Positions 35,307 through 37,589 of a DNA stretch of 64,000 nt are shown here, one piece after another. Every line of letters begins with the position of its first letter. Within the stretch, counting starts at the first letter, position 1. The position numbers and the translations under genes were made by a program. The notes under the pieces were generated by a model, which ran no database searches, was not told where the DNA came from, and worked only from the letters and a program-made list of their open reading frames with translations. Location of the stretch: NCBI RefSeq assembly GCF_055900595.2, contig NZ_CM148325.1. The stretch is one strand, 5' to 3'.

Positions 35307-35385
35307 TTATTTATACAGATCTGCGCTAACGGTGAGGTTATTACCTCGTTCCTGCCACTGGCGGGTGATGTGGTAATACTTAGCG
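35307..35385 (-). pseudogene. ydgH: Orphaned 3' end of ydgH (last ~25 codons) separated by IS10
   Basis: Minus-strand translation of 35385-35307 continues the ydgH frame as ...AKYYHITRQWQERGNNLTVSADLYK*, the expected native C-terminus. Confidence 0.75.
35377..35385. repeat. 9-bp target-site duplication, left copy (tacttagcg)
   Basis: Identical 9-mer flanks both IS10 ends; resembles the IS10 target preference NGCTNAGCN. Confidence 0.85.
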
Positions 35386-36713
35386 CTGAGAGATCCCCTC
35401 ATAATTTCCCCAAAACGTAACCATGTGTGAATAGATTTTGAGTAAGCAGGGTTGCAGCCACGAGTGAGTCTTCCCTTGTTATTGTGTAGCCAGAATGCCG
35501 CAAAACTTCCATGCCTAAGCGAACTGTTGAGAGTACGTTTCGATTTCTGACTGTGTTAGCCTGGAAGTGCTTGTCCCAACCTTGTTTCTGAGCATGAACG
35601 CCCGCAAGCCAACATGTTAGTTGAAGCATCAGGGCGATTAGCAGCATGATATCAAAACGCTCTGAGCTGCTCGTTCGGCTATGGCGTAGGCCTAGTCCGT
35701 AGGCAGGACTTTTCAAGTCTCGGAAGGTTTCTTCAATCTGCATTCGCTTCGAATAGATATTAACAAGTTGTTTGGGTGTTCGAATTTCAACAGGTAAGTT
35801 AGTTGCTAGAATCCATGGCTCCTTTGCCGACGCTGAGTAGATTTTAGGTGACGGGTGGTGACAATGAGTCCGTGTCGAGCGCTGATTTTTTCGGCCTTTA
35901 GAGCGAGATTTATACAATAGAATTTGGCATGAGATTGGATTGCTTTTAGTCAGCCTCTTATAGCCTAAAGTCTTTGAGTGACTAGATGACATATCATGTA
36001 AGTTGCTGATAGGTTTCCAGTTTTCCGCTCCTAGGTCTGCATATTGTACTTTTCCTCTTACTCGACTTAACCAGTACCAACCCAGCTTCTCAACGGATTT
36101 ATACCATGGCACTTTAAAGCCAGCATCACTGACAATGAGCGGTGTGGTGTTACTCGGTAGAATGCTCGCAAGGTCGGCTAGAAATTGGTCATGAGCTTTC
36201 TTTGAACATTGCTCTGAAAGCGGGAACGCTTTCTCATAAAGAGTAACAGAACGACCGTGTAGTGCGACTGAAGCTCGCAATACCATAAGCCGTTTTTGCT
36301 CACGGATATCAGACCAGTCAACAAGTACAATGGGCATCGTATTGCCCGAACAGATAAAGCTAGCATGCCAACGGTATACAGCGAGTCGCTCTTTGTGGAG
36401 GTGACGATTACCTAACAATCGGTCGATTCGTTTGATGTTATGTTTTGTTCTCGCTTTGGTTGGCAGGTTACGGCCAAGTTCGGTAAGAGTGAGAGTTTTA
36501 CAGTCAAGTAAGGCGTGGCAAGCCAACGTTAAGCTGTTGAGTCGTTTTAAGTGTAATTCGGGGCAGAATTGGTAAAGAGAGTCGTGTAAAATATCGAGTT
36601 CGCACATTTTGTTGTCTGATTATTGATTTTTGGCGAAACCATTTGATCATATGACAAGATGTGTATCCACCTTAACTTAATGATTTTTACCAAAATCATT
36701 AGGGGATTCATCA
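35386..36713 (-). mobile_element. IS10 insertion sequence (Tn10-type, IS4 family)
   Basis: Termini ctgagagatcccctcataatttcccc (inside end) and cttaatgatttttaccaaaatcattaggggattcatcag (outside end) in inverted orientation; single 402-aa transposase ORF; 9-bp direct repeats. Confidence 0.93.
35399..36607 (-). CDS. IS10 transposase
   Basis: 402-aa ORF MCELDILHDSLYQFCPELHLKRLNSLTLACHALLDCKTLTLTELGRNLPTKARTKHNIKRIDRLLGNRHLHKERLAVYRWHASFICSGNTMPIVLVDWSDIREQKRL... matches IS10/Tn10 transposase. Confidence 0.95.
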   Translation of the reverse strand: MCELDILHDSLYQFCPELHLKRLNSLTLACHALLDCKTLTLTELGRNLPTKARTKHNIKRIDRLLGNRHLHKERLAVYRWHASFICSGNTMPIVLVDWSDIREQKRLMVLRASVALHGRSVTLYEKAFPLSEQCSKKAHDQFLADLASILPSNTTPLIVSDAGFKVPWYKSVEKLGWYWLSRVRGKVQYADLGAENWKPISNLHDMSSSHSKTLGYKRLTKSNPISCQILLYKSRSKGRKNQRSTRTHCHHPSPKIYSASAKEPWILATNLPVEIRTPKQLVNIYSKRMQIEETFRDLKSPAYGLGLRHSRTSSSERFDIMLLIALMLQLTCWLAGVHAQKQGWDKHFQANTVRNRNVLSTVRLGMEVLRHSGYTITREDSLVAATLLTQNLFTHGYVLGKL

Positions 36714-37589
36714 GTACTTAGCGCCTTTCTTCGCGGCACGTTTCGCAACCTGATAGGAGACTTCGGTCATGTTGCCATAGTTGCCAGAGAATTTGATGCT
36801 GTCGAATGGAACCATCATCGCTGCTGTTGCTTTGTTCAGTTCTTCGACTTTAGTACCATCAGGAAGCGTGACAGTGTAACGCCCGCCTTTTGATGACTGG
36901 GTTTCAAAGAAGCGACCAACTTCAGAACTTGGTGATGCGGTTGTCGCAACCCCTGGGATCTCTACTTTCTTCGCTGCTTCGCCACCCGCAGCCAGAGCTG
37001 CACGTCCCGCTTCGGAATCTGCCGGGATCACATCCGGGCTTTGTACGACGCGTTTCTTAGCATCTTTTTTATAGATGAACGCTGTAATGCGCTGGTTACC
37101 GCCCTGGTTAGCATCGATTTGACGAACAATGTAGAAAGCGTAAGCGCCTTTCGCTTTTGCCGCTTTGGTGATGGCGTCATTGACTTCAGGCTGGCTACGA
37201 TAGAAGCCCTGAACGGTAACCGTATCAAACGGTTCAATCAGAACGGCCTGATCTTTTGGCAGTTCGACAACACCGTTGATAACGCGATTACTTGTTTCTT
37301 CGGCTTTTTCAGCATCGGCTTTATAGAGGTCAGCGACCACACGCCAGTTACCGCTGTTACCAAAATCAGAAGTGTCGACAACATAAAAAGAGGCGGCACC
37401 TTCTTTATCAGCGCGACGAGAAACGGCTTTCACCGCTTCGCCAATAGCATTAAAACGACCGGTAACCACTACACGGTCAAAAGGTTTAACCGCTGCCGCT
37501 TGCTCCGGTGTCAGTTCTGTTGCTGCGTTAACGGAAAAGGCCGTAGCAGAAAGCAGTGCCGACGCCAGGAGGGTGTTCTTAAGCTTCAT
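36711..37589 (-). CDS. ydgH: YdgH (DUF1471 repeat protein), truncated by IS10; stop codon supplied by the IS10 terminus
   Basis: 292-aa ORF with signal peptide ending ...KKGAKY*, where the native frame continues YHITRQ...; coordinates from ORF track, my hand count differs by 1 nt. Confidence 0.85.
   Translation of the reverse strand: MKLKNTLLASALLSATAFSVNAATELTPEQAAAVKPFDRVVVTGRFNAIGEAVKAVSRRADKEGAASFYVVDTSDFGNSGNWRVVADLYKADAEKAEETSNRVINGVVELPKDQAVLIEPFDTVTVQGFYRSQPEVNDAITKAAKAKGAYAFYIVRQIDANQGGNQRITAFIYKKDAKKRVVQSPDVIPADSEAGRAALAAGGEAAKKVEIPGVATTASPSSEVGRFFETQSSKGGRYTVTLPDGTKVEELNKATAAMMVPFDSIKFSGNYGNMTEVSYQVAKRAAKKGAKY
36714..36722. repeat. 9-bp target-site duplication, right copy (tacttagcg)
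   Basis: Same 9-mer as at 35377-35385, immediately after the IS10 outside end. Confidence 0.85.

Follow-up and report, generated by a model that had tools for sequence, protein, structure and literature searches.

The window, by which is meant the whole 64-kb stretch of DNA that was analysed, contains a ydgH gene that is interrupted close to its 3′ end by a complete copy of IS10, the insertion sequence that flanks Tn10. Both ydgH and the inserted element lie on the minus strand, and the next gene downstream, ydgI, is intact. The features of the locus, in the numbering of the window, are as follows (the target-site duplications and the Dam sites have no assigned strand).

33739 to 35121, minus strand: ydgI, of the basic amino acid/polyamine antiporter family; downstream neighbour, intact
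35268 to 35288, minus strand: native intrinsic terminator of ydgH; intact, between IS10 and ydgI
35307 to 35376, minus strand: stranded 3′ end of ydgH, from the third base of codon 292 through codons 293-314 to the native TAA stop
35377 to 35385: left target-site duplication, TACTTAGCG, from reading of the sequence
35386 to 36714, minus strand: complete IS10 of 1329 bp, with its outside end at 36714 and its inside end at 35386
35392 to 35395: Dam site GATC, IS10 nt 1320-1323, within the inside-end repeat
35399 to 36607, minus strand: IS10 transposase gene, 402 aa, intact; the sole long open reading frame of the element
36600 to 36669, plus strand: gene for the antisense RNA RNA-OUT, IS10 nt 115 to 46; driven by pOUT, towards the outside end and ydgH
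36645 to 36648: Dam site GATC, IS10 nt 67-70, overlapping the pIN -10 region
36711 to 37589, minus strand: truncated ydgH, 292 of 314 codons, ending in GAKY, with the TGA stop at 36711-36713 provided by IS10
36715 to 36723: right target-site duplication, TACTTAGCG, from reading of the sequence

Structure of the element and its target site

A first-pass annotation of this DNA had described a complete IS10 with an intact 402-aa transposase and both terminal inverted repeats, and all of these were found. Its left end had been placed correctly at 35386, but the element is 1329 bp long rather than about 1328 bp, and its right end is at 36714 rather than 36713. On direct reading of the sequence the inside end, CTGAGAGATCCCC, begins at 35386, and the outside end, CTGATGAATCCCC (reverse complement), finishes at 36714. 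The terminal repeats are CTGATGAATCCCCTAATGA and CTGAGAGATCCCCTCATAA, and the termini are those of the IS10 of R100. A degenerate pattern for IS10 ends gave two matches in the 64-kb window, against none expected (100 shuffles). Both the length of 1329 bp and the outside- and inside-end terminal inverted repeats are thus those of a member of IS10.

The transposase scores 402 bits against the NCBIfam profile NF033591 for IS4 family transposases (cutoff 152). It has the DDE triad (D97, D161 and E292) together with Y285, R288 and K299 of the YREK motif, as is characteristic of the IS4 family, and it is identical to the protein WP_001352368.1. RNA-OUT, which overlaps the start of the transposase gene, was the sole Rfam match in the 64 kb (RF00240, 97.3 bits with a gathering score of 41, covering positions 1-70 of 70), and its predicted fold is one long stem-loop (-21.3 kcal/mol, z = -3.95). 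The Rfam span, nt 115 to nt 46, fits the start of this RNA and its termination at nt 47 as published (PMC5006887); the same paper describes, within the IS10 control circuit, the Dam site that overlaps the pIN -10 region. GATC occurs in the element at nt 67 and nt 1320 only, so that both of the Dam sites of IS10 are present. Because the transposase, RNA-OUT and the GATC sites were found as they are known for IS10, those parts of the control circuit that were checked (weak pIN with its Dam site, RNA-OUT driven by pOUT, and the inside-end Dam site) are present and unaltered. Every defining feature of IS10, as a member of the IS4 family, that sequence can test was found in the element.

The claim that identical 9-bp repeats flank the element also stands, since re-inspection gave TACTTAGCG both at 35377-35385 and at 36715-36723, an identity with a chance probability of about 4e-6. 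The target consensus of Tn10 is NGCTNAGCN, and TACTTAGCG matches it at five of the six specified bases. As a validation of the method, the script that found this duplication also identified the one of 9 bp already known for Tn10 in R100. The sequence of the uninterrupted site, that is, of ydgH without IS10, is GGTAATACTTAGCGCCTTTC. In the closest relative, E200086, a single TACTTAGCG is present at the empty site; the parts of the window on either side of the insertion align to an unbroken stretch of that genome, overlapping in a segment that includes the 9 bp.

Truncation of ydgH and transcription across the junctions

At the junction with the outside end of IS10 the minus strand now reads ...GCT AAG TAC TGA. 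The first nucleotide of IS10 completes the codon for Tyr292, changing it from TAT to TAC, and nucleotides 2-4 form the TGA stop, as had been proposed when the product was described as ending in GAKY with a stop codon from the first bases of the element. The native codons stranded on the far side of IS10, previously put at about 22, do number 22 and are followed by the stop codon, which lies at position 35307; they encode YHITRQWQERGNNLTVSADLYK, and the translation becomes AKYYHITRQWQERGNNLTVSADLYK if the duplicated AKY is counted in. The truncated product is identical to the YdgH of E200086 as far as residue 292, and it scores 503 bits against NCBIfam NF040471, the YdgH equivalog, over profile positions 1-297 of 319.

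The intact allele of YdgH contains three PF07338 domains, placed by Pfam at residues 35-90, 119-174 and 259-314. The product encoded in the window stops at residue 292 and so is not a full-length YdgH with three tandem DUF1471 (PF07338) domains. The crystal structure of the Salmonella domain (PDB 4EVU) spans residues 244-314. In the DUF1471 fold the strand order is 2-4-3-1, with strands 3 and 4 coming after a long helix (PMC4092069), and the truncation would fall at the end of this helix, removing from the third domain strands 3 and 4, which are the two central ones. In Serratia marcescens, constructs without DUF1471-C fail to complement a ydgH deletion, and the deletion itself increases both beta-lactam resistance and detergent susceptibility (PMC11705850). 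The case for loss of function is based on the domain structure and on these Serratia marcescens experiments: since the third DUF1471 domain is essential and its two central strands would be missing, the function of YdgH is likely to have been lost, and the truncated allele is most probably null. Such an allele would be predicted to confer somewhat lower susceptibility to beta-lactams and higher susceptibility to detergents. The insertion would then have inactivated a conserved periplasmic protein whose loss changes how susceptible Enterobacterales are to beta-lactams and detergents.

Since the transposase gene is read in the direction of ydgH and follows the truncated gene downstream, transcripts of ydgH would enter IS10 via its outside end. 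Davis, Simons and Kleckner reportedly described in 1985 a fold-back inhibition through which read-through RNA is poorly translated into transposase, and if this model applies here then ydgH read-through RNA should give little or no translation of transposase. The predicted fold of IS10 nt 1-130 has a sense-strand hairpin over nt 58-103, which is compatible with fold-back inhibition, though short of proof.

It had also been suggested that outward-reading promoters in the IS10 ends could affect ydgI or ydgH. The suggestion is reasonable but depends on orientation. pOUT is directed into ydgH in antisense, and the side towards ydgI faces the intact terminator at 35268-35288. A terminator scan showed this to have an 8-bp stem with six GC pairs, followed by TCGCATTTTT. 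Transcripts leaving the inside end in the direction of ydgI, whether the transposase message or products of the pIII/OUTIIp promoters cited in PMC11481808, would meet this terminator first. Because the ydgH terminator and the upstream region of ydgI are both untouched, ydgI, whose product scores 614 bits against TIGR00905, should be little affected. A strong polar or activating effect on it is unlikely, and a polar effect was rejected as a candidate on the same grounds.

Distribution of the junction and origin of the insertion

In an exact search, the left junction between IS10 and ydgH was found in none of 5426 complete E. coli genomes, and it had no match either in the GTDB species-representative genomes or in JGI metagenome contigs. 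The absence of the junction from all the complete genomes makes the insertion strain-specific, as the first-pass annotation had it, and the closest genomes have an annotated, uninterrupted ydgH of 314 codons. Of 5423 complete genomes, 5421 have the gene in one piece, in a test that is blind to insertions near the gene ends and bounds large disruptions only. In an exact-protein lookup aimed at the inside-end junction in the same sequencing run as the Logan contig described next, YdgI proved to be very widespread, with 2620 index blocks, and all of the loci returned had an intact ydgH. The 292-aa truncated product is on record once, in a Logan contig from run SRR27886137, the fetched part of which shows no mismatches to the window over 5904 bases. 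This contig stops 29 nt inside the outside end of IS10 and represents the outside-end junction only; a break at the IS10 repeat is the usual behaviour of short-read assembly, and the junction of ydgH with the outside end therefore exists in the reads. A literature search on ydgH together with IS10 returned nothing relevant.

The host had been considered in a K-12 frame, and this has not survived comparison. Identity of the flanks is 96.6-98.0% to MG1655 and about 97% to most E. coli. Only about eight isolates (seven human, one dog) match the 8 kb on the right of the insertion at 100%, and the single one inspected, E200086, came from stool in Mali. A K-12 background was rejected on the basis of the MG1655 identity, and the host is a wild, non-K-12 lineage of E. 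coli. Names of genes known from K-12 are no guide to the identity of the strain. IS10 is widespread in wild E. coli: 1967 of the 5426 complete genomes (36%), of human, animal and environmental origin, carry it on chromosomes and plasmids, at up to 45 places in one genome, and it also occurs in 3173 plasmid records from many genera. Since so many complete genomes carry it, IS10 is no marker of laboratory Tn10 history, and the earlier suggestion that it marks a strain with a Tn10 history is not supported. Nor is the insertion, which had been taken for the only clearly strain-specific feature, the sole feature of the window that varies within the lineage, because E200086 differs additionally by a 1278-bp indel in ynfE/ynfF, an IS200/IS605 insertion and a more divergent right-hand segment. 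The proposed check for other copies of IS10 or for Tn10 gave neither a second IS10 nor tet genes, within the 64-kb window that it covered. The window therefore does not contain a Tn10 composite, which would consist of two inverted IS10 copies with tetR, tetA(B), tetC and tetD; this candidate was rejected also because ydgH flanks the element on both sides.

The simplest explanation of these results, and almost certainly the correct one, is that one autonomous IS10 (IS4 family) was inserted by cut-and-paste transposition into the 3′-terminal part of ydgH, in a lineage of wild E. coli. The transposase cut the two strands 9 bp apart at TACTTAGCG, which is close to the Tn10 target consensus, and repair of the staggered ends gave rise to the 9-bp duplication. 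As a consequence YdgH ends at residue 292 of 314, and with strands 3 and 4 lost from the third DUF1471 domain the result would be a probable null allele; ydgH transcripts would read into the outside end of IS10, where fold-back inhibition would prevent the translation of transposase. Comparison with relatives indicates that the insertion is derived with respect to the ancestral empty site that they retain, and the Logan contig indicates that it is real. Measured against the divergence of strains it appears to be recent, and it provides a clean, private marker of the isolate or clone, with little importance beyond strain typing.

It could be objected that the arrangement is an artefact of assembly, in which an IS10 from elsewhere has been placed into ydgH while the true chromosome has an intact gene. 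IS10 is indeed often a multi-copy repeat, at up to 45 places in a genome, and the junction is found in no other complete genome. However, a mis-join would not produce a perfect 9-bp target repeat that matches the Tn10 consensus at five of six bases, nor would it leave exactly one copy of the 9-mer at the empty site of relatives. The same ydgH/outside-end junction, with the same 292-aa product, is moreover present in the independent Logan assembly of SRR27886137, and an artefact is barely credible. It is also very improbable that the strain is a K-12 derivative or has been engineered with Tn10, with the IS10 as a relic. What speaks for such a history is that MG1655 lacks IS10, which is found in Tn10-treated laboratory strains such as XL1-Blue, JM109 and DH10B (PMC11148124), but the flanks have only 96.6-98.0% identity to MG1655; the 8 kb to the right are shared at 100% identity with a few isolates, seven human and one canine, among which the stool isolate from Mali was inspected; the 64 kb hold no tet genes and no second IS10; and IS10 is carried by 36% of complete E. 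coli genomes, of human, animal and environmental origin.

A different kind of question is whether the insertion is adaptive rather than neutral, having been fixed for the lower beta-lactam susceptibility that comes with losing YdgH. The increased beta-lactam resistance of a ydgH deletion and the need for DUF1471-C in YdgH function (PMC11705850) would fit this idea, as would the existence of three other strains in which an IS10 lies 228 bp ahead of the ydgH start codon. Yet the junction is known from one other dataset only, SRR27886137, which is possibly from the same isolate, and the contiguity of ydgH in 5421 of 5423 complete genomes gives no sign of recurrent loss, in a test that misses insertions near gene ends. 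The location is explained by site preference alone, the target being close to the IS10 consensus, and the upstream insertions may equally concern pntA. Fixation by selection is thus an unlikely explanation. The more elaborate proposal is that, in a human-associated lineage, selected loss of YdgH domain III lowers beta-lactam susceptibility, and that IS10 hits at the ydgH locus, in the window and in the three strains, are a recurrent route to it; this must be considered quite unlikely.

Comparison with known IS10 copies

The relationship of the element to known copies can be read from the sites at which these differ. IS10-left and IS10-right of the Tn10 in R100 (NC_002134.1) were assigned by gene order, the copy on the gltS/jemA side being left and that on the tetD side right, and the two differ at 15 positions. 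The window copy has the IS10-right bases at nt 24, 25, 27 and 47, and the IS10-left bases at the other 11 (nt 83-1300). IS10-right, the reference active IS10, has the same length, terminal repeats, gene layout, RNA-OUT and Dam sites as the window copy and is identical to it over nt 1-82, the outside-end region; the 11 nucleotide differences between them lie from nt 83 to nt 1300, and the window transposase has I266, S381, T389 and V398 where IS10-right has V, L, A and A. IS10-right also belongs to a composite transposon, whereas the window IS10 is a lone element. IS10-left, in turn, shares with the window copy every base of nt 48-1329 and the entire transposase protein, and differs from it at four outside-end positions, nt 24, 25, 27 and 47. 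It is the presence of IS10-left bases over nt 83-1300 that makes the window transposase identical to WP_001352368.1. IS10-left itself is reported to be inactive (PMC11148124), whereas elements with this coding sequence, identical or near-identical to the window copy, are multi-copy in wild genomes. All sequence parts of the window IS10 are intact, and it may still be able to transpose.

In RefSeq the identical protein WP_001352368.1 bears the PGAP label 'IS4-like element ISVsa5 family transposase'. This is a difference of naming only: ISVsa5 is treated as IS10R in papers (PMC11064736), and in R100 the label is given to the left-type and the right-type protein alike.

The three strains with an upstream insertion, DETEC-S560, E166 and PS1Phumofeces1, resemble the window in element family, locus and orientation. 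In these strains, however, IS10 lies between ydgH and pntA and is flanked by the duplication TACTTAACA; it stands 228 bp upstream of ydgH, counted from the start codon, leaves the gene intact and is left-type at all 15 of the diagnostic sites. The closest counterpart of the element itself is in E. coli 55989 (NC_011748.1, 230607-231935, in the gap between yafC and dkgB). This copy is 100% identical to the window IS10 over 1329 bp, with the same pattern at the 15 left/right sites and the same transposase, WP_001352368.1, and it has a 9-bp duplication of its own; it differs from the window copy in its insertion site and in its host lineage. The element in ydgH is therefore one already known, identical to a copy in a public genome, and it is the insertion site alone that is new.

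Left-type IS10 between ydgH and pntA

A second, independent IS10 insertion is found at the ydgH locus, in the ydgH–pntA intergenic region. The element lies upstream of both genes, at 228 bp from the ATG of ydgH and 304 bp from that of pntA. It is present in three strains, which may be clonal.

Intergenic IS10 at the ydgH locus
L001 (E. coli DETEC-S560 chromosome) 2981-4309: IS10 between ydgH and pntA; also in records NZ_CP032066.1, NZ_CP095801.1 and NZ_CP180609.1

The DETEC-S560 element is a lone copy that carries the left-type base at all 15 positions at which the IS10-left and IS10-right of Tn10 in R100 differ, and it is flanked by a perfect 9-bp duplication, TACTTAACA. 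[quoted passage not shown]

At these 15 diagnostic sites natural IS10 copies are mosaics (window 35386-36714; comparison loci L001, L003 and L005-L009), and the patterns of left-type (L) and right-type (R) bases in seven copies are of four kinds: RRRR followed by L; RRRRRR followed by L; L followed by RRRRRR; and L throughout. Among the 1248 E. coli records containing the inside-end 100 bp of IS10, 708 carry the left-type segment and 528 carry the right-type segment alone.

Divergence within the lineage

The ydgH allele of the lineage (window 36711-37589 and flanks) is unusually divergent, being at least 99% identical in only 17 of 5423 complete E. coli genomes and just 90–95% identical in 2159 of them; despite this, the YdgH protein differs from that of K-12 at only three residues. 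Identity between the window and its closest relative, the Malian stool isolate E200086, is 99.79% across 15386-35386 and exceeds 99.9% across 36715-55712, but falls to 98.1% in 56990-64000, and this pattern suggests recombination boundaries within the lineage.

Other differences from E200086

Two paralogous genes are intact in the window:

53035-55461: ynfF, intact 808-aa ORF
55519-57945: ynfE, intact 808-aa ORF

In E200086, 1278 bp of window 55712-56990 are missing and the ynfE-like gene is shortened; since ynfE and ynfF are approximately 70% identical, this absence probably represents a deletion between the paralogues. Separately, an IS200/IS605-family element of about 700 bp is inserted in E200086, with bioD on one side and a truncated clcB on the other; the window lacks this insertion (at about 49528-49534). 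At the right-hand end of the window a prophage integrase gene (63306-64000) adjoins rspB and continues past the window end; the same site beside rspB holds the Qin remnant (intQ) in K-12, and in E200086 a set of integrase, excisionase and exonuclease genes.
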